A stretch of DNA of 64,000 nucleotides from the NCBI GenBank assembly GCA_963785235.1, contig CAWAUM010000011.1, positions 192,001 to 256,000 on the forward strand. The letters are read 5' to 3'. The position numbers were made by a program, and so were the translations under genes. The DNA is from an uncultured delta proteobacterium. GTDB lineage: Bacteria > Desulfobacterota > Desulfomonilia > UBA1062. The notes under the pieces were generated by a model. That model saw nothing but the letters and a program-made list of their open reading frames with translations. It had not been told where the DNA came from and made no database searches. Below, piece by piece: positions 3,681 through 61,628 of this stretch. How positions within the stretch are numbered: the first letter of the stretch is position 1; every line of letters begins with the position of its first letter.

Positions 3681-3845
3681 ATCTCCTGTTATGCGAGGTA
3701 TATCAGAAAAGAAAAGTGTTCCAATATATAGTACTTATACTGTGCTGCACTTTAAAATCAATATCATCTGCAGATTGAGCCTCATGAACAGTGCCCGGAT
3801 CGAATCCGGATATGCATTATATCTAGTCATTGTTGATAAGAGTTT

Positions 3846-3863
3846 CATTGATTCAGATCAATG
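3846..3863. promoter_or_regulatory. FNR/Dnr-type box CATTGAT-TCAG-ATCAATG upstream of the RND operon
   Basis: Exact TTGAT-N4-ATCAA at 3848-3861. A minus-strand TATAAT at 3816-3821 points toward the MFP gene. Confidence 0.7.
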
Positions 3864-3955
3864 GAATGTATTGTTACGGACCGGCGAAGAGATTTCGCTG
3901 AGGAGGGGCCGTGCAGAAAGATGGCCATGAGGGCCATCCTCAGGTGATAAGAGTC

Positions 3956-4958
3956 TTATCCGCGCCCGCCGTAGTAGCGCGACGGCCCTTCCAGGCACCC
4001 CCACCCGCACTCGGTGAAGATCCTCCGGCAGCTCGCCACGGTCTCGCCGCGTCCGTCCTCGGTCTTTTCCATCACATCGCGCGGGTTGGCGCCCACTTCC
4101 GCCCAGAACAGGTTGGCCCCGGCCAAGCCCCCCAGCGTGCAGGGCTCGTGGGTGCAGTTTCCGGCCACCGTCCTGGGCATGCCGAGCCTCGTGACGGCCA
4201 CGATCTGGGCCATGCGGAGCTCGGTGATGGTGCCGAGCTTGGCCATCTCGGTGCCCGGGATGGGGATGCGCCTGGCCGCCCCGCTGTAGGCAGGGTTGAC
4301 CGACGCCGTGTAGCAGATGAGGTCCGCGAGCTCTTCGTTGGTGTGCTCGGGGCCCACGGGCTCCACGCAGGTGCCCACCAGGAGGCCCGCCTCCTGGAAG
4401 TTGCGGATGCTCTCCATGCGCTTCTTTGGGGACAACCGGGAGTCGATGCCCTCCCTCAGGCGCAGGGCGTGATAGACCCCGGCGATCCCGGCATCCTTCA
4501 TCTGCTTTGCAGCTTCGACGGTCTGGTCGCCCACGTTGGCGATGAGGATGGTCTCGGCCTTGAGGTTTCTCCTGATCTCCCGGGACATGTCCAGGAACAG
4601 CTCGAAGGGGTATTTGGCAGTGGTCATGACAAATACCGCATTGGCCCCGTCCTGTTCAAACTGCCGTGCATAAGCCACGGCCTGCTCCGGGTGTGATCCG
4701 GGTCTCTTCTTTAAAGACATTGTTCACCCGGGCAAATGAGCAGAACCTGCAGTCGGCCGGGCAGGGCGCCAGGTTGAGCGCCATCTGGGCATGCACCTCG
4801 GCCCTGTTGCCGGTGAGCTCCTTGGATATTCGGTTGGCCTCGGCCATGACGAGGTAGGTCTCGGGTGAGTCCTCACGCAGGCCCAGGAGGTCTATGAGTT
4901 CCTGGCGGGAAGGGAGCACCCCGTCTCTGGATCGTTTTATGGTGTCATTGATGTTCAC
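3956..4958 (-). CDS. Radical SAM protein (biotin-synthase-like, function unknown); frameshift near 4690
   Basis: GTG start at 4958 after GAGGGT; CPADCRFC motif in the tail of ORF 4656-6416; continues in ORF 3956-4720 (PEQAVAYARQFEQDGANAVFVMTT...). Confidence 0.85.
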
Positions 4959-5038
4959 ACATACCCTCGTTTCATCAGCGGATTCTTCATACATACCAGG
5001 TATAGGGTTCCGCGCAAGGCCTTTTCCGTTCAAGAACT

Positions 5039-6416
5039 TCACAGGGGCTCTGCGGCCTGGTGCCGTTTTTGACACATCCGGTACACTGCCGGGATGAGCG
5101 AAACCAGCACGATGAGGCCGATGCCCAGGAGCAGGTTTGTGGACACGTGCCCCTTGAGCAGGTTCAGGAGCGAGCTGGAAAACACGATGAACGCAATGCA
5201 GGCGGGCAGCGATAATTCCCATGAGAACCAGTGCCCGGCACAGTACGCCCTTCGGTCTCTCCCCGGCCCAGTACGTCCTCTCCCGGGAAGCGGATGCATG
5301 GATGGTCTTTCTGAAATGGCCCTTCAGGCGCAGCCTGTACAGGTAGGTCATATGCCCCCCGGCCACTGGACTCCTGCCGTTCAGGGCCATCTCGGGCTCG
5401 CAGAGTAGATCGAGGACATGGACGGTTTTTGAATGTGAGCCCATCTTCCGGGTGCATCCTGCGCAGTAGGTGGCCACCATACTGCCCTTGACCTCGGCTG
5501 CGGTGCGTTCCATCCAGCGGCCTGCCAGGTCGGGAGACAAAACATCGACCCCGGCCCCGCTGCCGCAGCACAGGGTCTGCTCCCTCGCATGGTCCATGTC
5601 ATGGAAAACCACACCGGCCCTGTCGAGATGTCTGCGCACCGCGTCGTGGCAGTCCGAGTGGAACCGGGTGCCGCACGGGTCGTGGAGCACGACCTCGCCC
5701 CTGTTCACGCCGGAGGCATCTTGAGCCATGGGCAGCACCTCGTAGATCATCCGCACATGGAGCCCGGTGCCGTACTCCTTGAACATGTCGTAGCAGTTGG
5801 GGCAGACCACGATGACCTCACGCACCCCATGTTCCACGAGATATGCGCCCATTTCATCCATCATGGCCCTTGAAAAGGCATCACGGCCAAGGCCCTGGGA
5901 TATGCGGCCGCAGCAGTCGAGCACGATGCCCAGGCTGGGGTCTTCCTTCCTTAATCTCTCGAAGATCTCTTTTGTCCTGGCCGGCCGTGTGCCCGGAAAG
6001 GCGCACCCCGGGAAGAGCACAGTCTCACACCCCCTGGGCAGGCCGTAGTAGGTGAAGCGCTTGGACATGCCGGTGCGTTCATAGCCCCAAAGCCCCTTGT
6101 GCTCGGGGAACGTCCCCTTGCCGCGATCAACGGATTCCCTGCGCATCTCCAGGAACATGTGGGCCGGTTCCGCATGAACAGGGCAGACAGCGGTGCAGAG
6201 CCTGCACAGGCTGCATTCGAAGGGCATGGCGAGACTCTGAGGGTTCGCCGGGTCATAACCGCTGGCGATCTCACCGGGCGTACCGTACTTCTGCAGGAAG
6301 GCGCATTCGTCGCGGCAGGCCCCGCAGTCCGTGCAGTTCTCCCGCACCCGGGCCAGGCTCTCCCGGAGACCTGCCCGCAGAGGGGGTGCTGCATCATGGG
6401 TTTTCCGGTCTTTCAT
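5039..6416 (-). CDS. (Fe-S)-binding protein (two ferredoxin-type Cys motifs plus two CCG domains) with a remnant C-terminal VTT/TVP38 tail
   Basis: CTDCGACRDEC, CSLCRLCTAVCP, FPGC, DCCG, VCPNC, HDPC, LCCG, YCAGC. The tail LPACIAFIVFSSSLL... lies in another frame (ORF 5039-5299). Confidence 0.85.
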
Positions 6417-6563: not shown

Positions 6564-7077
6564 TTAGTCGACCTTGCCGAGGGGGTAGTCTGCCTCGTCC
6601 CAGGCCTTGATGCCGCCCGGGAAGCGGTACACGTTCTTGTACCCGAGCTTCTTGGCCCACATGGCTCCGTTGTGGCTGCGGGTGCACTTCACGAAGCCGC
6701 AGTAGAACACGATGGTCTTATCCTTGTCCTGGCCGAGGAGTTTCACGAGCGCGTCCTGTGGTCTTGTCGTCGAGAGAGGTCATCTCCGGGATGGGGAACT
6801 CCATCTGGACCGCGCCCTTGACATGCTGCTTCTTATAGCTCGCTTCATAAGGCATCGTGTCTACGACGAGCATGTCCTTTTTCTGGTCAATCATATCCTT
6901 GAGCTCCTTGGCCGTGACCATGTCATAGCCGCCTCTGGCCACTTCACGGGCAAAGGTCACCGCGATCTGCTCGGTGTCCAGCTCCTTGGTGCCCCAGGCA
7001 GCCAGCGCGCTGGATGCAAAAGCGGCCACAAATACTGCGACCATGACGAATCCGATCATTCCCTTCAGTGTCTTCAT
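6564..7077 (-). CDS. Exported rhodanese-like protein; frameshift near 6755
   Basis: Signal peptide, then VVDTMPYEASYKKQHVKGA; second frame IVFYCGFVKCTRSHNGAMWA...YRFPGGIKAW. Confidence 0.88.
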
Positions 7078-7107
7078 AGTGTTCTTCTCCTCTTTGAGAA
7101 TATTTTT

Positions 7108-7601
7108 CTACTCAGTTCCTTCAGATCTGCCAGCATCCGGGGCGGCTCTGGCCTCTGGCATGACCATGGATTTTCCTGAGCGTGCCCACCTGGAAAGGTA
7201 CAGGTAGGGCACCACGATCCCACCCAGCACCAGGTCCCGCCAGAAGGCCTGCACCAGGCCTGCCTGCTTTGCCAGGTCGTCGGCCCCGAAGCACCCGCAG
7301 TCCACGTCCAGGTTCAGCGATATGCCGTAGCCCAGGACACAGATGAACATGCCCAGCAGGCCTGCGATGACGGCGAGGCTGCCCCGGATGTCCAGGAGCA
7401 GGCCGATGCCGGCCACGGTCTCGATGATGGGAAGGCCTACAGCCACTACGGGCAGGAGCATCTCGGGCACCAGGTCGTACCCGGAGATGGTCCGGGCAAA
7501 GGCCTTGGGGTCCAAGAGCTTGACCACCCGCCGTAGATGAACAGGGCCGCAAGGGCAACACGGACGACCCGGTAGGGCCAGATCCATGCAGACAAAGGCA
7601 T
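7108..7601 (-). CDS. MauE/DoxX family redox-associated membrane protein; frameshift near 7530
   Basis: N-terminus MPLSAWIWPYRVVRVALAALFIYGG joins VKLLDPKAFA...DVDCGCFG...FWRDLVL. Confidence 0.85.
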
Positions 7602-16552: not shown

Positions 16553-17242
16553 CTATTCCCCTTCGGAGAGGTCTTCAAGTGCCTTGCGGTCCAGAATAGT
16601 GATCATCTTCCCCTGAACTTCCAGTACGCGATCGTTCTGCATCTTTCTGAGTGCCCGGGAAAGGGCCTCGGGTGTTGATCCGAGTATCTTGGACAGCTCA
16701 CGATGGCTGATGGGCAGCTCAATCCTTTCCCCGTTCCCCTTATTTTCACGGACCTGGGTGAGGATGAGAAATGAGGCCAAACGCTGGGGGATCTCCTTGA
16801 GCGCCAGGGACTCGATGAGTGTCATGGATTCCTTGAGCCGGCGGGATAACACCCTCAGGATGTTCAGGAGGAGCGCGGGCTCTTTCATGACGATCTCCTC
16901 CACTGCTGCGCCTGGAATGGTGAGGATGTCGGACTTTTTCAGAGCCACAGTCTCTGCGGGAAAGTCATGGGTGGCAAAGGCGGTGCACAGACCGAAAGGT
17001 TCCCCTGGCCCTAAAAGGTACAGGGTCTGTTCCTTGCCCTCCATGGAGGTCTTGGAGAGTTTCACCTGCCCTGAAACAACGACAAAGAACGCCTTGACCA
17101 GGTCTGTCTCGGCAATGATCATCTCTCCGGGCTGGTATGTCCCGATGAGAACACGCCGGGAAAGGGCCTCCAGTACTTCATCGGAGAGCCCCTGGAAGAG
17201 TGCTATGTCCTGAATCTGTTTGCGCGTGTCCATAAAAATCAT
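16553..17242 (-). CDS. Crp/Fnr family transcriptional regulator (Dnr/HcpR-like, no N-terminal Cys cluster)
   Basis: cNMP domain SGQVKLSK..GKEQTL..GPGEPFG; HTH ELSKILGSTPEALSRAL. Confidence 0.92.
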   Translation of the reverse strand: MIFMDTRKQIQDIALFQGLSDEVLEALSRRVLIGTYQPGEMIIAETDLVKAFFVVVSGQVKLSKTSMEGKEQTLYLLGPGEPFGLCTAFATHDFPAETVALKKSDILTIPGAAVEEIVMKEPALLLNILRVLSRRLKESMTLIESLALKEIPQRLASFLILTQVRENKGNGERIELPISHRELSKILGSTPEALSRALRKMQNDRVLEVQGKMITILDRKALEDLSEGE

Positions 17243-17262: not shown

Positions 17263-17366
17263 ACCATACCACTGATCCGACCTATATGTAACATCATGGG
17301 ATGAGGCCTTGTTATCATAAAGAAGAATCCCGGGGCAAAAGAATTCACAGCTGTAAGGAGTGTAAA

Positions 17367-17702
17367 ATGACGGATAAAGAATACGTAACCCATGCCGATG
17401 ACAACACGTTTGATGCCCTTGCCTTAAAGGCTGAAAGCCCGGCCCTGGTGGATTTCTGGGCGCCCTGGTGCGGACCCTGCCGGGCTATCGGGCCGGTTCT
17501 GGAAGAGGTAGCCAGGGAATATGACGGACGGGTGAATGTGGTGAAGGTGAACGTTGACGAGAGCCCTGAGACATCGAGAAAATACGGGGTCAGGAGCATC
17601 CCCACCTTATTGTTCATAAACCGGGGACAGGTCCGGGAGACGCAGATAGGCTCGCTCCCCAAGGCACAACTCACGGCTTTTATAGACAGGAACTTAAAGT
17701 AA
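17367..17702 (+). CDS. trxA: Thioredoxin
   Basis: VDFWAPWCGPC, YGVRSIPTL; AAGGAG RBS. Confidence 0.95.
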   Translation: MTDKEYVTHADDNTFDALALKAESPALVDFWAPWCGPCRAIGPVLEEVAREYDGRVNVVKVNVDESPETSRKYGVRSIPTLLFINRGQVRETQIGSLPKAQLTAFIDRNLK

Positions 17703-17740
17703 TACCCTGTAAACCACAAAGAGAGAAAGGAAGGTCGGCT

Positions 17741-17896
17741 ATGAGCGATTTCTGGATATTCATAATAGCACTGGGTGCCTGGTTCTTTATCCAGACCTGG
17801 CTGCTCCCAAAGCTGGGTGTCCGCACCTGAGCATCGGGACCGGCCTGCCGGGCGGCAGACAAGACAGACCATAAGAAAATAGGACCGAGGGTTTAA
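17741..17896 (+). CDS. Small membrane protein, candidate selenoprotein (51 aa if UGA at 17828 is Sec; 29 aa otherwise)
   Basis: AAAGGAAGG RBS; MSDFWIFIIALGAWFFIQTWLLPKLGVRT-TGA-ASGPACRAADKTDHKKIGPRV-TAA; hairpin CTGCC-GGGC-GGCAG 14 nt after the UGA. Confidence 0.6.
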
Positions 17897-18057
17897 AGAT
17901 GAGATCAGGCCAGGCATCACCTGTGCGGAATTCTACGATGCATGCCTTCGGCCTAACGAATACCATAACCGGTTTGTTTTTTATTTTTATATGACCGTAC
18001 CATTGAATTGTCCGGATACGATCTTATTACATTATTACTTAAAAAAAGGAGGGCATT

Positions 18058-18264
18058 ATGACCAAAAATATGGGGACCGTTGACCGGGTCATCAGGGCAG
18101 TCCTGGCTATTGTTGTTCTTCTCCTGTATCTGGCGGGCGCTATAACCGGTATTGCAGCTGTCATCCTGGGTATCTTTGCTGCGATCTTCATCATCACAAG
18201 CATTGCAGGCTACTGCCCGCTTTATGTGCCCTTGAAGATTTCCACCAGAAAGCATGTTTCATAA
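18058..18264 (+). CDS. DUF2892 (YgaP-like) membrane protein
   Basis: NMGTVDRVIR...GYCPLY. Confidence 0.9.
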   Translation: MTKNMGTVDRVIRAVLAIVVLLLYLAGAITGIAAVILGIFAAIFIITSIAGYCPLYVPLKISTRKHVS

Positions 18265-19579: not shown

Positions 19580-19645
19580 AAGGTGTTGGGTAATAGGTAA
19601 GCTGGGCAGAAGAAAGATACACGGAGTCGAGAAAACAGGAGATTG

Positions 19646-20879
19646 ATGATGAAAAAAATCTTGATCATCGGGGCCGGGACAGCAGGGACCATGATGTCGG
19701 TTCACCTGTCGCGCAAGCTGGACCGGAAGGAATGGACCATCACGGTTCTGGACAAAGATGAGAACCATTATTACCAGCCCGGGTATCTCTTCATGCCATT
19801 CGGGATCTATACAAAACACGATGTGATCCGCAAAGGTGCGAAATATATCCCAGCAGGGGTCGAATATCTGCTGGCCGAGGCCGAGCAGATCGTTGCCGAC
19901 CAGAACCGTGTCAAACTGAAAGACGGCCGCGAGATCGCCTATGACATCCTGATCATTGCCACCGGCACCACCATCCATCCCGAAGAGACCCAAGGCATGA
20001 TGGAAAATGGCTGGCGCGAGAACATCTTTGATTTCTACACCGCTGACGGCGCCGAGGCCCTGGGCAGGAAACTGCCCGGTTTCAAGGGCGGCAAGGTGGC
20101 GATACATGTGGCGGAGATGCCCATCAAATGCCCGGTGGCGCCCCTGGAAATCGCATTCATGACCGACTGGTATTTCACGCAGAGAGGGATCCGCAAGGAC
20201 GTGGCCATGGATTTCGTCACCCCCCTGGCAGGGGCCTTCAGCAAACCTCTCACCGCCAAGGTCATGGGTCACATGCTGGGTGAGCGCGGGATCAACATGG
20301 TGGCCGATTTCGGAACCGAGCGGGTCGAACCCGGAAAACTCATCAGTTATGATAACCGCAGCGTGGATTACGACCTCCTGATCACTACACCGACCAACAT
20401 GGGTGATGCACTCATGGCACGTTCCGGTCTGGGAGACGATCTCAACTTTGTGCCGACAGACAAACACACCCTGCAGGCTGCAGCCAAAGACAACATCTTC
20501 GCCCTGGGCGACGCCACCAACCTGCCCAGTTCCAAGGCCGGCTCGGTGGTCCATTTCCAGTCCGAGATCCTCACCGAGAACATCCTGAGCTATATCAAGC
20601 GGCAAGGAGCTTAAGGCCAGCTTTGACGGGCATTCCAACTGCTTCATAGAATCGGGCTACGGCAAGGCCTTTCTCCTCGATTTCAATTACGACCTGGATC
20701 CGGTGGAAGGCACCTATCCGTTTCCCGTAGTGGGCCCTTTCAGCCTGCTGAAGGAGACCCGCCTCAACCACCTCGGCAAACTGTCCATGAAATTTGTCTA
20801 TTGGAACATCCTGCTCAGGGGCATCCCCGTGCCCGGAATTACCTCCAAGATGGGCAGGGCAGGCAAGATAATTCCTTAA
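19646..20879 (+). CDS. sqr: Sulfide:quinone oxidoreductase-like flavoprotein (type III-like); frameshift near 20605
   Basis: GAGTAG, HYYQPG, IKCPVAPLE, FALGDA, SKAGS; second frame FDGHSNCFIESGYGKAFLLDFNY...NHLGKL to TAA 20877-20879. Confidence 0.85.
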
Positions 20880-20943
20880 GGAGTCCGTTACCGCATCAAA
20901 AACATAAGGTATCGGGAAACCGATGCATGCAAAGGAGATGAAC

Positions 20944-21258
20944 ATGGCCACAAAAGAGATTGCAGGAAAAACTTTAAATGTAACGGAAGACGGGTATCTC
21001 ACTGATCCGTCCCAGTGGACGCGGGAGGTGGCACAGGCCATTGCCGCCGAAGAGGGCATTACCCTCACGGATGCGCATTGGAAGGTGATCGACTTTTTGA
21101 AGAAGGACTTCGCCGCGACCGGTGTACTGGCATCCATGCGGCGGATAAACAAGACCGGCGGTATCCCCACCAAGGAACTCTATGATCTGTTCCCGGATGG
21201 ACCGCTCAAGAAGGCCGCCCGCATCGCCGGACTGGCCAGGCCCACAAGCTGCGTATAA
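20944..21258 (+). CDS. TusE/DsrC family sulfur relay protein (terminal Cys only)
   Basis: EDGYLTDPSQW, LTDAHWKVIDFL, LFPDGP..AARIAGLARPTSCV. Confidence 0.92.
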   Translation: MATKEIAGKTLNVTEDGYLTDPSQWTREVAQAIAAEEGITLTDAHWKVIDFLKKDFAATGVLASMRRINKTGGIPTKELYDLFPDGPLKKAARIAGLARPTSCV

Positions 21259-21271
21259 AGGGGAGGACATC

Positions 21272-21742
21272 ATGGCTGACGAAAAGATTAAGAAGGTATC
21301 GATTGTCTGTTCCAAGGGATCCCTCGAAGGGATCTATCCGGCCCTGATCATGGCCAACGGAGCCCGTATGGAAGGGATCGAGGTGAACCTCTTTTTCACC
21401 TTTTTCGGGATGGACGCCATCACCAAGAAGAAGATAAAAAAGATCAAGGTCGCCACCGTCGGCAACCCGGCCATGGGCATACCGACGCTTATCGGCGCAC
21501 TGCCCGGCATGTCCGCCCTTGCCACCAAGATGATGCAGAAAAAGATGGACGCCCTCGATATCCCGCCCATCGACGAATTTATCGAGATGATCAGCGCGGC
21601 AGGCGGCAAACTCTATGCCTGCAAGGCCAGCGTAGACATGTTCGACCTGAAAAAGGAGGACTTTGTCGACGAGGTTCAAAGCATACTGACCGTGGGGGAC
21701 TTTTATGCCCTCGCCGCTGGAGGCCAGATAATCTTTACCTGA
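21272..21742 (+). CDS. DsrE/DsrF/DrsH-like (DsrE2) sulfurtransferase family protein
   Basis: YPALIMANGA, LFFTFFG, LYACKAS. Confidence 0.9.
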   Translation: MADEKIKKVSIVCSKGSLEGIYPALIMANGARMEGIEVNLFFTFFGMDAITKKKIKKIKVATVGNPAMGIPTLIGALPGMSALATKMMQKKMDALDIPPIDEFIEMISAAGGKLYACKASVDMFDLKKEDFVDEVQSILTVGDFYALAAGGQIIFT

Positions 21743-36371: not shown

Positions 36372-37590
36372 TTACGCCCCCATGATGGCCCGGATAACCG
36401 AACGCACCCTGTGTGCATGCATACAGTTATGGACGCGCACCAGATCCACGCCATCTAGGGCAGCCCAGGCGGTTATTGCGTCTGTACCTTCTTCGCGTTG
36501 ATCAATAGCGCAATCAAGGATTGTGCCGATAAAGGATTTTTTCGAGTGACCTGCCATAATGGGCACGTGAAGCGACTTGAACTCGGATATATGGCGCATG
36601 ATGGAGAGGTTTCCCTGAAGGTCTTTGCCGAAACCAAGCCCCGGGTCTGCGATGATGGACTCAGGAGAGATCCCTGCAGCAAGGCATGCCTCGATGCGCT
36701 CGTCCAGGAAGGTGTATATATCGCCGATAATGTCTTTATAGATCGTATCGTCCTGCATGGTCTTGGGCGTACCCCGCATGTGCATCAGGATAACCCCGCA
36801 TCCGCTTTCCCGGGCGAGGTTCATCATGTCAGGGTCACTTCTGAGCGCACTGATATCATTGATAATGGTGGCGCCTTCATGAAGGGCTGCTCCGGGCCAC
36901 TGCGGCCTTGGTTGTATCGATGCTGATGGGGATGGTAAGAGCCCTGGCCAGTTCTTTGATAATGGGGGCTATTCTTGAGGTTTCCTCAATTGCATCAACG
37001 CTCAGAGATCCCGGCCTTGATGATTCACCTCCAACATCGATAATTTCGGCGCCCTGCCTTACCATCTCCAGGGCATGTTGGAGTGCTGTGTCAGGGTCAA
37101 GGTATTTCCCTCCATCGGAAAAGGAATCAGGTGTCACATTCAGGATTCCCATGATGACCGGTAATTCCATCCACTTCAGGTTTTTCCCGCAGAGGTTGAG
37201 CTCTAGGGGTCCATTTTCAGAGAATACCTGTTCACGGATGCTCTGAGCCAGAGGTTCCAGGCCCGTCTGAAGCATGAGCTTGTCTGTCAGGAGTCTGAAG
37301 TGCCGGAGGTCACCCATTATCACGCAGTCCGAGGTTTCAACCTTTCCTGAAACCACATGCCTATGGACTGCCACATCGCCGCCGATGGACAGCATGCTCT
37401 GCTTGATGATATTGGCTGCGTAGAGCTTTACCCCCTTTACCAGGAGGTTTACATGATTGAGCTTAGGAACCAGATAGGCCAGTGAGGCCGGATCGACGCC
37501 GCAGGAGAGTAGAACGCCCTCGTCTGCATCAAAGATCCGCCTAGCTTGCGGCAGCCCCTTCCTGGACGATCCTGTCGATCTCTGCGCCAT
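36372..37590 (-). CDS. folP: Dihydropteroate synthase with N-terminal extension; frameshift near 36890; start uncertain
   Basis: MGILNVTPDSFSDGG, GGESSRPG, ISIDT; second frame ILMHMRGTP, DPGLGFGK, SKKS, VRVHN. Confidence 0.92.
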
Positions 37591-39359
37591 CGATGACCTC
37601 TTTTTCCAGCAGGGTCTGGGCTATCTTGTGGAGGATGTCGAGGTTGTCCTCAACAATACCCCTCGTCTTGTTATAGCAGTCCATAACGATCGTCTTCACC
37701 TCGTCGTCGATCTTCTGGGCAGTCAGTTCACTGTAGTCAACCCGCTTGGAGATCTCTCTACCTAAAAAGATCTCCTGTTCTACCTTGCCGAAGCTCAAGG
37801 GCCCCAGCGAGCTCATGCCCCATTCCGTGACCATATGCCTGGCCATGTCGGTGGCCCGCTCGATATCATTTCCTGCGCCGGTAGTAAGAATGCCTAAGAC
37901 CAGCTCTTCGGAAGCCCTTCCGCCCATGAGAACGGAGATGGTGGCAAGCAGAAACTCCTTGCTGTAGGTGTGCCTGTCATCGATGGGGAGCTGCTGGGTA
38001 ATGCCCATGGCGCGTCCCCTGGGGATGATGCTTACCTTGTAGACAGGGTCTGCATTCGGCAAGCTTCTTGGCCACCAGGGCATGGCCGGCCTCATGGTAT
38101 GCGGTGGTCTTCTTCTCCTCATCCGAGATCACCATGCTCTTGCGCTCCACACCCATAAGGACCTTGTCCTTGGCCTGCTCCATGTCTTCCATCATTACCT
38201 TTGTCCGTGTTTTACGGGCGGCAAGAAGCGCAGACTCATTTACGAGATTGGACAGGTCAGCCCCTGAAAAACCGGGTGTGGCCTTGGCAAGTATTGCCAG
38301 ATTGACATCATCGGCCATAGGGATATTGCGGGTATGTACCTTGAGGATGCCCTCTCTGCCTTTTACATCAGGGAATGCCACTATTACCTGGCGGTCGAAC
38401 CTGCCCGGACGGAGAAGGGCCGGGTCCAGGACGTCCGGTCGATTTGTCGCTGCCATGAGGATGACGCCCTCGTTGGATTCGAAGCCATCCATCTCAACCA
38501 GGAGCTGGTTCAGGGTCTGTTCGCGCTCGTCATGGCCGCCGCCGAGGCCGGCCCCCCTGTGCCTGCCCACGGCATCGATCTCATCAATAAAGATAATGCA
38601 TGGGGCATGCTGTTTGCCCTGGGCAAAGAGGTCCCGCACACGTGATGCGCCCACACCTACGAACATCTCCACGAAGTCGGAGCCGGACATGCTGAAGAAG
38701 GGAACGCCAGCCTCACCCGCAACTGCCTTTGCAAGGAGGGTCTTTCCTGTCCCCGGGGGGCCCAGGAGCAGCACCCCTTTTGGTATCCGGCCGCCCAGCG
38801 TGGTGAATCGCTTGGGTTCCTTGAGGAATTCTATGATCTCCTCCAACTCCTCCTTAGCCTCATCCACGCCTGCCACATCAGCAAAGGTGACCTTCATTTT
38901 ATCCTGGGTCATGAGCCTGGCCTTGCTCCTGCCAAAGCTCATGGCCTTGGTTCCGCCGGTTTGCATCTGCCTCATGAACAGGACCCAGACACCGATGAGC
39001 AGCAGCATTGGAATCCATGAGATGAGCGCAGAGAGGTACCAGGGAGATTCATCCTTTGGTTTGGCTATGATTGAGACATTCTTTGCCGTAAGACGCTCCA
39101 CAAGTTTTGGATCATCCGGGGTATAGCTGTCAAAGAGCTTTCCGTTTACCAGCGTCCCCTTGATCTCATTGCCCTGGATGGTGACTTCTTTTAATTCGCC
39201 TTTATCCAGGACCTTGAGAAATTCGCTGAAGGATAGGGTGGCGGTCTGTTTTGTGGGCTGATTGAAAAGGTGGAAGAGCATCACCCCGATAAGGGCGATG
39301 ACCACCCACAACGCCACGGTCTTAATCATGCTCGTATTTGAGTTCATGAGAGGACTCAC
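37541..39359 (-). CDS. ftsH: ATP-dependent zinc metalloprotease FtsH; frameshift near 38060
   Basis: Two TMs, [32 protein letters not shown]; C-terminal part in ORF 37541-38122. Confidence 0.96.
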
Positions 39360-54789: not shown

Positions 54790-55686
54790 AGTGCGCCGGT
54801 GTTTCTTACTGCTATGAGGTCGCGCTGGCGATGAATGGGCGCTTGTTGATATGGACCTGAAGATCGGCCAGGGTGAAAAGGTCGTCATCGCAGGGCCGGC
54901 AGGATCAGGAAAGACCACCCTGCTGCAACTGCTGGATGCACTGATCCTGCCCACCAAAGGAGACATCCTCTATGACGGTATCAGTGTGCGTACACTCGCC
55001 AGGAAGAAGGGCCTTACAATGGTGCGCAGGCGTATGGGGGTCCTATTCCAGTTCCCTGAAGACCAGTTTTTCCAGGAGACTGCTTATGACGAGCTTGTCT
55101 TTGCCATGAGGAATTTTTATCGACCTCACAAGGGGAGTTGGAAGAAAGGGCATACCATGTCACTGCGGGTTTCGGCCTTGAGCTTGAGCGGCTCAAAAAC
55201 ACGTCGCCATTTCGTTTGAGCTCAGGAGAGAAGCGAAAACTCGCCTTAGCATCCGCCCTCATGATAGGCCCTGAGATATTGATGCTGGATGAACCCACAG
55301 CAGGCCTCGATGCCTCAGGCAGGCGCGAACTTACGGGTATGATATCTTCACTTGCGGATACAACCGTCATCATTGTCACCCACAACCAGGAGGATTTCCT
55401 CTCTCTGAATGATCGTTTTATCGGTATCACTTCAGGCAGAAAGGTCATTGATGTGAGGAAGGAGGAACTTCTTGATAAGATCGAGGCCATGGATGCCTCC
55501 GGTATCGATGCCCCGCTTGTACTCCTGGTCCAGCACTGGCTAAAACGCTCAGGCCTTGCATTGGATCATACCTTTTATGAAATGGATGAACTCATTGGCT
55601 TTCTCAGGGAAAAAAGTGCTCATGAAAAGTGCTTTAAGGAAGCCAATCATCCTCTACTTGTCGTTACCCTTTTGTGTATTGACTAA
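54780..55686 (+). CDS. ECF-type/cobalt ABC transporter ATP-binding protein (EcfA-like); frameshifted, start uncertain
   Basis: GPAGSGKTT, FQFPEDQFF, LSSGEKRK, LDEPTAGLD, VTH. Confidence 0.8.
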
Positions 55687-60630: not shown

Positions 60631-61628
60631 TTAAGGCCTGCCGGATATCCTTCCCTCATTCCTGGGGGAAAGCACAAGCCGCCCGATCAATTCGGTCAGG
60701 GCCGCATATACGTGTATCAGTGAGCTCGATTTTATCTGTTGTTCTATCCCGCGGACATCTTTAAGCAGAGTGGTAAGTTGCGCAATGCTCCATGAGGACT
60801 TGCGCCTCATGGCCTTGTCTGCCACGAAGTCGTGGATCTTCATCTTCTTCCAGTCGTGTGCCGGAAAGCACTACATAGTGGGTGATGATCTGGTTTTCTA
60901 TCCTGCTGATTATCTCCAGCTCGGCGACACCTGAGAGCTCAAGTTCATAGAGGCGTGACAGGGCATCCTTTTTCCGGTCGAACAGCGCATCAAGGAATGC
61001 AAATATTACGGGTTCATGCGTGCGCATGACTGCCTCATGAACATCCTTGCCGGTTATGGAGGGGCTCTGGTGGGCGTACAGGCACAGTTTCTGAATCTCG
61101 CTGTCCAGATACCACATGCTGCTTCCCCCGGTCATGTCGGCAAGCAGCACGGCAGCATCCCTGTCAATCTTCTTCCCATGCAGCGGCGTCCTTTCCATGA
61201 TCCAGTTGATTCGCTCGCCCCTGTTCTTGATGGACTCGAAACGGACTATCTCAGCCTTGCCATCGAATTTCTTGATAAGCTTGTTCAGTTCCTTATCCGT
61301 CTTCTCAATCTCCATGAATCAGGATGAAGGTTGTGATTTCGCATGGATTATCAAGGTAGAGTATCACCTGGTCCAGCTGCTTGGCAGAAAGCTTCTGGCC
61401 GTTTTTGATGATGACGACCCTTTGCTCAGACAGGAAGGGCATGGTGTTGCACAGGCTTATGATCTCATTCATACTCAGGTCTTCTTCAGCGTTGAAGGTA
61501 GCCCAGTTCATGGATATGTTCTCGCCCAGCTGTTGTTTTAATCTTACGAGCTCCTCCTCAACAAGGAACGTCTCCTGGGCTATGAAAACGGAATTGGAAA
61601 GCGGGCTTTGAGGTTTCTTTGTGCTCAT
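60631..61628 (-). CDS. holA: DNA polymerase III subunit delta; two frameshifts
   Basis: TMPFLSEQRVVII, YLDNP, EIQKL, IEQQIKS; conserved leuS-lptE-holA-rpsT context. Confidence 0.82.

Follow-up and report, generated by a model that had tools for sequence, protein, structure and literature searches.

A small gene on the forward strand of a 64-kb stretch of DNA from an uncultured deltaproteobacterium (the window, i.e., the whole stretch that was analyzed and whose positions are used throughout) very probably encodes a selenoprotein of an undescribed, widespread bacterial family. The 29 codons from the ATG at 17741 encode MSDFWIFIIALGAWFFIQTWLLPKLGVRT and are followed by a TGA at 17828 to 17830, beyond which the frame stays open for 21 further codons, encoding ASGPACRAADKTDHKKIGPRV, up to the TAA at 17894 to 17896. 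The features of the gene are the following.

17729 to 17734, plus strand: ribosome-binding site (RBS) GGAAGG with a 6-nt spacer to the ATG at 17741 (direct reading of the sequence)
17741 to 17896, plus strand: full open reading frame (ORF) of the putative selenoprotein, 51 residues with selenocysteine (Sec, U) at position 30, TAA stop included (translation with TGA as U)
17744 to 17812, plus strand: predicted single transmembrane (TM) helix, residues 2 to 24, with the conserved residues W14, Q18, W20, L22, and P23 (AlphaFold2 model)
17828 to 17830, plus strand: in-frame UGA, read as Sec30 (alignment of TGA and Cys codons among relatives)
17845 to 17858, plus strand: apical stem-loop CUGCC-GGGC-GGCAG resembling a bacterial Sec insertion sequence (bSECIS; stem-loop reading plus family comparison)
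17846 to 17848, plus strand: Cys36 (TGC) of the U-x5-C pair, six residues past the UGA and within the 5' arm of the hairpin

The region from 17741 to 17896 is one gene, whose 51-residue product consists of an N-terminal TM helix, a conserved juxtamembrane motif (L-P-K-L-G-V-x-T-U-x(5)-C), and a short, charged, unstructured tail; Cys36 is likely the resolving cysteine of the U-x5-C pair. The hairpin is composed of CTGCC (17845 to 17849), the loop GGGC (17850 to 17853), and GGCAG (17854 to 17858), and its loop starts 19 nt past the A of the UGA, i.e., 22 nt from the U. All of these elements had been described in a first-pass annotation of the stretch, namely, the RBS and a 29-codon ORF with one hydrophobic helix ending in LPKLGVRT ahead of the TGA, the 21 open codons with a Cys six residues on, and the GC hairpin with a G-starting loop 19 nt past the UGA, and each of them was found in place. 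The accompanying statement that the gene is unannotated and invisible to gene callers holds for the full-length form only: the 29-amino-acid (aa) short form is already present in public protein sets (NCBI/ENA) as three near-identical, unnamed variants. The exact window sequence of this short form was found on 4 contigs, and a single-sequence word-index search matched only the near-identical 29-aa cluster.

Relatives and the codon at position 30

A HMMER scan without an index of 1.84 billion representative proteins (E ≤ 1e-3) returned 15 matches. Ten of them, with lengths of 49 to 63 aa, align through the UGA and carry a Cys in the U30 column (...LP[KR]LG[IV]xT-C-[ML]SGxC...), four are 29-aa forms ending in ...G[VI]xT, and the last one (P0010) was dropped as an unrelated Cys-rich repeat protein. 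A scan of one genome per species was performed with the degenerate pattern W14-N15-W20-x-L-P-x-[LF]-G-[IVM]-x-T, followed at equal standing by TGA, TGC, or TGT, which matches the window once and none of 100 shuffles. It yielded at least 120 loci, and all per-locus counts of the family given below refer to those listed (L numbers). Codon 30 is TGA in 106, TGC in 9, and TGT in 5 of the 120 loci, a distribution over the only three triplets that the pattern admitted, so that homologs with TAA or TAG at this position were beyond its reach and undetectable. A start codon is located 9 to 23 codons ahead of W14 in all 120 loci (12 to 13 codons in 100 of them), and a hydrophobic segment of 19 residues is present in every case, with a lowest mean Kyte-Doolittle score of 1.39.

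The reading frame beyond the TGA is open and conserved across the 106 TGA loci. The residues at +1, +2, and +3 after the U are mostly [ML]-S-[GP], and a Cys follows 4 to 7 residues past the U in 80 of the 106 loci (first Cys at +5 in 72, +6 in 6, +4 in 1, and +7 in 1). The column of Cys35, the counterpart of Cys36 in the window protein, is invariant in 24 Cys-type sequences. The homologs of L077 (...LPKLGVRT-U-ASGQACRTADKK) and L033 (...LPRLGVPT-U-ASGPSCRSADKT), which stem from independent assemblies, exhibit the same TGA position and downstream frame as the window gene, with 78% and 61% identity to the window protein, respectively, over the full length including the post-UGA part. Cys-for-Sec variants and a recurrent TGA with a conserved downstream Cys had been named in the first-pass annotation as checks on its proposal, and both were thus encountered, the former in 10 of the 15 representative matches and as TGC or TGT in 14 of the 120 loci. 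In L092 and L093 (300-nt flanks), the Sec-type ORF continues in frame into an apparently separate gene of the FmdB zinc-ribbon type (MPI[FY]EYRC..C), a family that the table of a 2026 review (PMC13188914) also counts among the selenoproteins.

The family spans Planctomycetota, Desulfobacterota-type "Deltaproteobacteria," Myxococcota, Acidobacteriota, Spirochaetota, and others. According to the record titles, which are available for 80 of the listed loci, 34 belong to Planctomycetota, 23 to "Deltaproteobacteria" of the Desulfobacterota type, 9 to Acidobacteriota, 5 to Myxococcota, 3 to Spirochaetota, and 6 to other or unspecified taxa. The titled loci originate from metagenome-assembled genomes, with the sole exception of L061 from the cultured isolate Tautonia sp. 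JC769. A profile of 113 members detected 1,786 protein clusters (90% identity, 23 to 153 aa; E ≤ 1e-3) among 2,934 candidates, and the 120 relatives listed from this profile search are all unnamed or designated "hypothetical protein," none of them with a precomputed Pfam domain.

The stem-loop and the protein architecture

According to the published consensus, a bSECIS is a stem-loop just 3' of the UGA whose small apical loop carries a G within its first two positions, 16 to 37 nt from the UGA (PMC13188914, as excerpted). For the family comparison, the best simple hairpin of each sequence was scored from +8 to +48 relative to the U of the UGA. The set of 106 Sec-type sequences was composed of 105 loci plus the window, and L085 was left out as it contains Ns. 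The mean energy of the best hairpin was -9.43 kcal/mol in this set, compared to -3.30 kcal/mol for the 14 Cys-type sequences (Mann-Whitney p = 1.6e-7), -4.43 kcal/mol for mononucleotide shuffles (p = 1e-28), and -3.92 kcal/mol after synonymous recoding (Wilcoxon p = 2.6e-19), a control that leaves the protein unchanged and redraws the codons in 20 recodings per sequence. The real hairpin was better than at least 19 of its 20 recodings in 63 of the 106 sequences. The loop starts 17 to 29 nt from the U (mode 22), is 3 to 5 nt long in 101 of the 106 sequences, and has a G among its first two bases in 104 of them, the most common loops being GGUC (24), GGA (15), and AGUU (11). This geometry agrees with the consensus as it is given in the excerpt of PMC13188914.

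The stems vary widely between lineages, but the pairing is retained (CUGCC/GGCAG, GCGCGG/CCGCGC, GGACCG/CGGUCC, and GUUGCUC/GAGCAAC). The stem of the window recurs in L043, L077, and L033 with the loops GGUC, GGAC, and GGUC, respectively, and with one G-U wobble in L033. In 47 sequences the Cys codon lies inside the 5' arm, where UGC is opposite G in 30 of 30 and UGU opposite A in 16 of 17 cases, a covariation that is merely illustrative because the choice of the best hairpin enforces pairing. Two recurrent tail motifs derive from the hairpin arms, C-A-V-[DS]-P-R being the translation of GCGCGG-UGGAU-CCGCGC (e.g., L005, L009, L042, and L066) and C-x-P-S-S-[AV] that of NNNCCG-AGUU-CGGNNN (e.g., L010, L017, L021, and L022). 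The RNA signal accordingly dictates part of the protein sequence.

With respect to the protein, the AlphaFold2 model, which was calculated from a 113-sequence alignment, shows one helix (residues 2 to 24) and a remainder of low confidence; the mean predicted local distance difference test value is 67.4 overall, 88 for residues 1 to 10, and 85 for residues 11 to 20. Among the 113 aligned sequences W14, W20, P23, G26, T29, and position 30 do not vary and L22 hardly varies, all of them positions required by the search pattern itself. Conservation independent of the pattern is found at position 18 (Q/N in 107 of the 120 loci) and position 24 (R/K in 100 of 120). The mean number of lysine and arginine residues is 0.21 in the first five residues versus 1.75 in the 15 residues from P23, and the C-terminal flank is more basic than the N-terminal one in 97 of the 120 loci. 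Based on the positive-inside rule, this charge bias predicts an N-out/C-in topology, which would place Sec30 and Cys36 on the cytoplasmic face. The homodimer prediction for two copies of a Cys-form member (score 0.01, mark 0.42) is neutral on self-association. A profile search of the PDB sequences gave no matches, and the ESM Atlas contains one unnamed 56-aa cluster of 123 members, mostly from Planctomycetota (score 0.88), which has no functional value.

Gene neighborhood and link to thioredoxin

The gene is embedded in a neighborhood of redox and sulfur genes.

16553 to 17242, minus strand: Crp/Fnr-family regulator, divergent from trxA (PF13545, PF00027; NF006901 at 2e-33)
17301 to 17702, plus strand: thioredoxin TrxA, 38 nt upstream of the microprotein gene (PF00085 at 1.5e-30; TIGR01068 with 121 bits, cutoff 96.8)
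18058 to 18264, plus strand: YgaP-like TM (DUF2892) small membrane protein, downstream of the microprotein gene (PF11127 at 5.8e-21)
Downstream of the YgaP-like TM gene: FadL-like outer-membrane protein
19643 to 20879, plus strand: type III sulfide:quinone reductase (SQR), Cys form HSNC (NF049943, in two frames)
20923 to 21258, plus strand: TusE/DsrC sulfur-relay protein (PF04358 at 3.3e-34; TIGR03342 with 89.7 bits)
21272 to 21742, plus strand: DsrE2-like sulfur carrier (PF13686 at 1.5e-34; NF047629 with 109.5 bits, under the cutoff of 210)
Downstream in the same neighborhood: flavin reductase

TrxA is likely the reductant of the microprotein. The SQR gene is broken by a single frameshift near 20600 to 20612 (three-frame translation), and NF049943 accordingly matches it in different frames with 452.7 bits (model positions 1 to 318) and 125.7 bits (320 to 405). 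Between the microprotein gene and the DUF2892 gene lies a 161-nt spacer (17897 to 18057) with a T-rich tract at about 17975 to 17993 and long predicted pairing. The fold of 17800 to 18010 is not significant (z = -1.73), no Rfam family was detected, and a simple terminator scan found nothing. Elsewhere in the window, split or truncated-looking genes are located at 955 to 2550, 36372 to 37590, 37977 to 39359, 55138 to 55686, 60761 to 61628, and 3735 to 6416; of AcrB only the N-terminal half is present, folP and holA are each split into two pieces, ftsH breaks off within the M41 domain, an ABC ATPase is represented by a fragment, and an Fe-S/CCG protein runs in frame into a radical-SAM-like start. 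The broken genes suggest assembly indel errors or widespread pseudogenes. The two best other candidates for read-through in the window, at 3735 to 6416 (minus strand) and 6712 to 7536 (plus strand), were rejected, as they translate to junk or to frame-fused neighboring genes.

Neighbors of the other loci were counted with local hidden Markov models in 5-kb flanks of 80 listed loci, and the counts stand without a background frequency. ArsR-type regulators were found in 16 of the 80 loci, thioredoxins in 12, MBL-rhodanese proteins and zf-HC2 anti-sigma factors in 11 each, DUF302 proteins in 8, SQR-like proteins in 7, and TauE and DsrE proteins in 3 each. At least one sulfur or redox neighbor type is present in 35 of the 80 loci. 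The commonest Pfam families among 427 neighboring ORFs are Rhodanese (9), Thioredoxin (6), HTH_20 (6), YgaP-like_TM (at least 5), and ACR_tran (5), and further ones are AhpC-TSA and cytochrome bd subunit I (3 each); of the immediate same-strand neighbors, 25 of 59 lack a Pfam family. L077 shares thioredoxin, DUF2892, DsrC, and an SQR-like gene with the window, and the YgaP-like TM family lies directly downstream of the microprotein also in L003 and L042. The redox and sulfur context proposed at the outset for the trxA-sqr-tusE-dsrE cluster is borne out by the neighbors in the window and by the counts at other loci.

A search for longer relatives returned 4 matches, 3 of which contain a thioredoxin domain. 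In P0144 (163 aa), a Cys-type member is cleanly fused in frame to a TrxA-type domain (TIGR01068, 122 bits), and P0143 and P0145 look like ORFs spanning adjacent microprotein and thioredoxin genes. P0145 and P0146 terminate at ...GVPT, presumably at the Sec TGA. In L064 (3728 to 4876, minus strand), a Cys-type member is followed 62 nt further on by a fusion of a DsbD/CcdA-type membrane domain with a thioredoxin domain, a module for electron transfer across the membrane. In L003 and L008, a zf-HC2 anti-sigma factor gene immediately precedes the microprotein gene on the same strand, in the former case in the order anti-sigma factor, microprotein, YgaP-like TM protein, which hints at a control by extracytoplasmic function sigma factors in Planctomycetota.

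Interpretation and comparison with known systems

The combination of a Cys at the U30 position of relatives, the conservation behind the UGA, and a hairpin that is specific for the Sec form identifies the window gene, with high probability, as a genuine Sec-encoding one. The initial proposal of a tiny membrane-anchored redox selenoprotein is supported by the same evidence, by the recurrence of the TGA, and by the redox and sulfur context.

Several observations weigh against it. The window hairpin has a stem of 5 bp and an energy of -6.8 kcal/mol, which is not significant on its own. RNAfold of 17828 to 17900 gave z = -0.64, and 45 of 200 shuffles folded equally well; with our own hairpin scorer, 183 of 2,000 shuffles (9%) of the same 40 nt were at least as stable. 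Taken by itself the window hairpin does not exceed chance and gains meaning only through the family comparison, and the initial claim of a SECIS element stands for the hairpin with consensus geometry that distinguishes TGA forms family-wide but not for the window hairpin taken singly. RNAalifold found no consensus pairs in a MAFFT alignment of the 106 post-UGA segments because the hairpins are out of register, their position shifting by several nucleotides, and Rfam searches at the gathering threshold and at a permissive E-value returned chance-level matches only (mir-9230, E = 2.9; HrrF, E = 5.1). With respect to the Sec machinery, none of selA, selB, selC, and selD was found within the 64-kb window, whose tRNAs are those for Glu and Lys only, and no tRNA-Sec was detected in the window or in any retrieved flank of the 120 loci. 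The SQR of the window fits a "selenoprotein subtype" model but has a Cys (HSNC, TGC) at the HxxU position of that family, so the organism does not use Sec wherever it could. Furthermore, many window genes are frameshifted and the local sequence quality is imperfect, an objection countered by the identical TGA and downstream frame in the independent assemblies of L077 and L033. The context of the family is heterogeneous, with 45 of the 80 loci lacking any of the listed sulfur or redox neighbors.

A further observation against it is a subgroup of about 20 Sec-type loci with Myxococcota or Acidobacteriota labels (L006, L007, L013, L016, L029, L048, L069, L070, L072, L082, L094, L099, L100, L102, and others), in which the U is followed by x-V-P-x-P-R-R-S-A-R and no Cys is nearby. 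The couple U-x4/5-C is therefore not a universal mechanism of the family. About nine members of the subgroup terminate in G-C immediately ahead of a TGA, and a distal C-terminal Cys may serve as the resolving residue. A second Sec at this terminal TGA was rejected; nothing is conserved after it, and it is therefore a true stop.

Taken as a selenoprotein gene, the locus would function as follows. SelB with Sec-tRNA(Sec) would bind the hairpin that overlaps the codon of Cys36, and Sec would be inserted at the UGA at 17828 to 17830, whereas in the absence of selenium nothing but the 29-residue helix would be made. Sec30 and Cys36 would cycle between the selenol/thiol state and an intramolecular selenenylsulfide at the cytoplasmic membrane surface, with the adjacent thioredoxin re-reducing the pair. 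The oxidant or substrate might be a peroxide or a reactive sulfur species close to the membrane, and sulfane sulfur or polysulfide produced by the neighboring SQR is a candidate. This thioredoxin-coupled sulfur or peroxide mechanism, including the N-out/C-in topology, is put forward tentatively, based on the charge bias, the gene context, and one fusion. A further-reaching and rather doubtful idea is that the family is a founding example of a "minimal" membrane selenoenzyme, i.e., a peptide of some 50 residues with no catalytic equipment other than a Sec/Cys pair at the membrane surface. Recycled by thioredoxin, such a peptide would serve to detoxify or relay sulfane sulfur or lipid peroxides that arise at the membrane, and it would correspond in function to SELENOS, SELENOK, or GPX4 on the prokaryotic side.

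Among the alternatives, the prominence of ArsR-family regulators as the commonest neighbors (16 of 80 loci) and the fairly frequent efflux components (AcrB type in 5 of 427 neighboring ORFs) might speak for a selenoprotein in the form of a membrane peptide whose Sec and Cys bind or pass on soft metals or metalloids (Hg, As, Cu, Cd, or Se/Te) under ArsR-type control. Small mercury transport proteins with a Cys pair would be the analog, and a selenoprotein family with a putative role in mercuric transport does exist (Table 1 of PMC13188914). Such a role is nevertheless unlikely, since no heavy-metal-associated, MerR, ArsB/ACR3, or ArsC family is among the most frequent neighbors, and the adjacency to and fusion with thioredoxin indicate redox turnover. 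The ArsR-type regulators, moreover, often stand beside MBL-rhodanese, TauE, or SQR genes (L019, L022, L036, and L044), an arrangement that we take to be the layout of persulfide-responsive operons.

A lower probability still is assigned to the UGA as a selenium-sensing switch, which would deliver the 51-aa form with selenium and the 29-aa helix without it, the ratio of the two or ribosome pausing regulating a partner or the downstream genes. The large excess of Sec-type over Cys-type loci (106 versus 14 of 120) is unusual for a mere better catalyst, and the short product would still be a complete membrane helix. However, the conserved residues cluster around the U and the C, beyond the helix alone, the downstream genes differ between loci, and 161 nt including the T-rich tract separate the window ORF from the next gene.

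The absence of sel genes from the window and of tRNA-Sec from the flanks would also be compatible with a UGA that is read through without Sec, be it by hairpin-stimulated near-cognate insertion of Trp, Cys, or Arg or by a lineage-specific codon reassignment, as downstream conservation shows that translation continues but does not tell which residue is inserted. This is very improbable: all 14 non-TGA loci listed have a Cys at the homologous position, the hallmark of Sec/Cys families, the geometry of the hairpin agrees with the bSECIS consensus, and the carriers belong to at least six phyla with a standard code, in which TGA terminates many of these very ORFs. In addition, complete gene sets for Sec insertion occur in several Planctomycetes according to an excerpt of PMC4807772, so that the Sec trait does exist in the phylum that most often carries the family.

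Least credible of all is a gene that ends at the UGA and encodes a hydrophobic 29-residue microprotein, with the hairpin as an attenuator, stabilizer, or terminator and the open frame as incidental; it could draw on the three near-identical 29-aa variants in public annotation, the insignificance of the window hairpin on its own, and the unverified Sec machinery, but it is contradicted by the amino acid conservation past the UGA in 106 of 106 TGA loci (Cys at +4 to +7 in 80), the sense Cys codon exactly at the UGA position in full-length homologs, the lack of the hairpin in Cys-type genes, and the fact that a terminator would not require a loop that begins with G and keeps a fixed distance to the UGA.

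If the window gene belongs to a real selenoprotein family, the family would enlarge the known selenoproteome, and the selenoprotein inventories of many genomes have been one short, with at least 106 Sec-type loci in data comprising one genome per species. Routine annotation would have missed the gene because it is truncated to 29 codons, and selenoproteome counts rest on known families; a gene this short escapes gene callers and family models alike. Because Sec forms dominate (106 of 120 loci), the family could be among the most widespread uses of selenium in Planctomycetota, Desulfobacterota, Myxococcota, and Acidobacteriota. It also offers a tractable system, as the peptide can be synthesized chemically, L061 is a cultured carrier, and the link to thioredoxin provides a biochemical assay.

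The comparison with known families started from Pfam-A and NCBIfam (release 20.0, June 2026), in which nothing matched the 51-aa or the 29-aa form at E ≤ 1, and 15 family members gave chance-level matches only (best E = 0.027). The NCBIfam models of the "hypothetical" selenoproteins GOS_B, GOS_C, DG, DW, DF, OS_HP3-5, and UGSC did not match either. The families of Haft and Tolstoy (2025) appear in the table of the 2026 review. Among the 119 selenoprotein families and subfamilies in Table 1 of PMC13188914 (2026; supplements excluded) there is no entry with the architecture or motif of the family, and a single-pass membrane-anchored microprotein is absent from this prokaryotic inventory; the deep-Sep paper contributes, as far as its excerpt goes, only the DG, DW, and DF families (PMC12013277). 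Full-text literature searches (supplements excluded) retrieved no description of the microprotein family.

The closest general likeness is to the bacterial Sec/Cys redox selenoproteins with a bSECIS in the coding region (PMC13188914, Table 1), with which the microprotein shares the in-frame UGA, the existence of Cys and TGA homologs, the geometry of the stem-loop, and a nearby Cys suited to a selenenylsulfide. Unlike them, it has no thioredoxin-like or other known fold, comprises only about 50 to 60 residues with a single membrane helix, and spaces Sec and Cys by x4 or x5 instead of the usual UxxC or CxxU, and its Sec forms are more numerous than its Cys forms among the listed loci.

The eukaryotic membrane selenoproteins SELENOS and SELENOK are alike in outline, with a membrane anchor and a tail that bears a Sec/Cys pair, but this is an analogy and not a membership. 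The tail of these eukaryotic proteins is cytosolic and unstructured. SELENOS is a transmembrane protein, and its Sec188 has been proposed to form a selenosulfide with Cys174 (PMC3628699, as excerpted). In the microprotein, by contrast, the Sec adjoins the helix and is not located at the C terminus, and the SECIS is bacterial and inside the coding region; with respect to homology, neither Pfam-A nor the PDB yielded any match or relative, with the coverage of both families in the Pfam copy unchecked.

The selenoprotein subtype of the YeeE/YedE thiosulfate transporters (GUxSG; PMC13188914, Table 1) and the UGSC-containing family resemble the motif T-U-[ML]-S-G-x-C in 3 to 4 residues only. YeeE/YedE shares the sulfur-handling context, but it is a large multi-pass transporter, whereas the microprotein has a single helix; PF04143 and NF041046 had no match among the 15 family members at E ≤ 1, and PF04143 had none on the window protein. 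The YgaP-like TM/DUF2892 proteins (PF11127) are also small, membrane embedded, Cys bearing, and found in rhodanese and sulfur contexts. They constitute a separate family with a longer hydrophobic region and no detected similarity to the microprotein, of which the DUF2892 protein is possibly a partner and not a relative. In comparison to all of these systems, the microproteins represent a new family in which the standard Sec decoding of bacteria serves a protein of unusual architecture.

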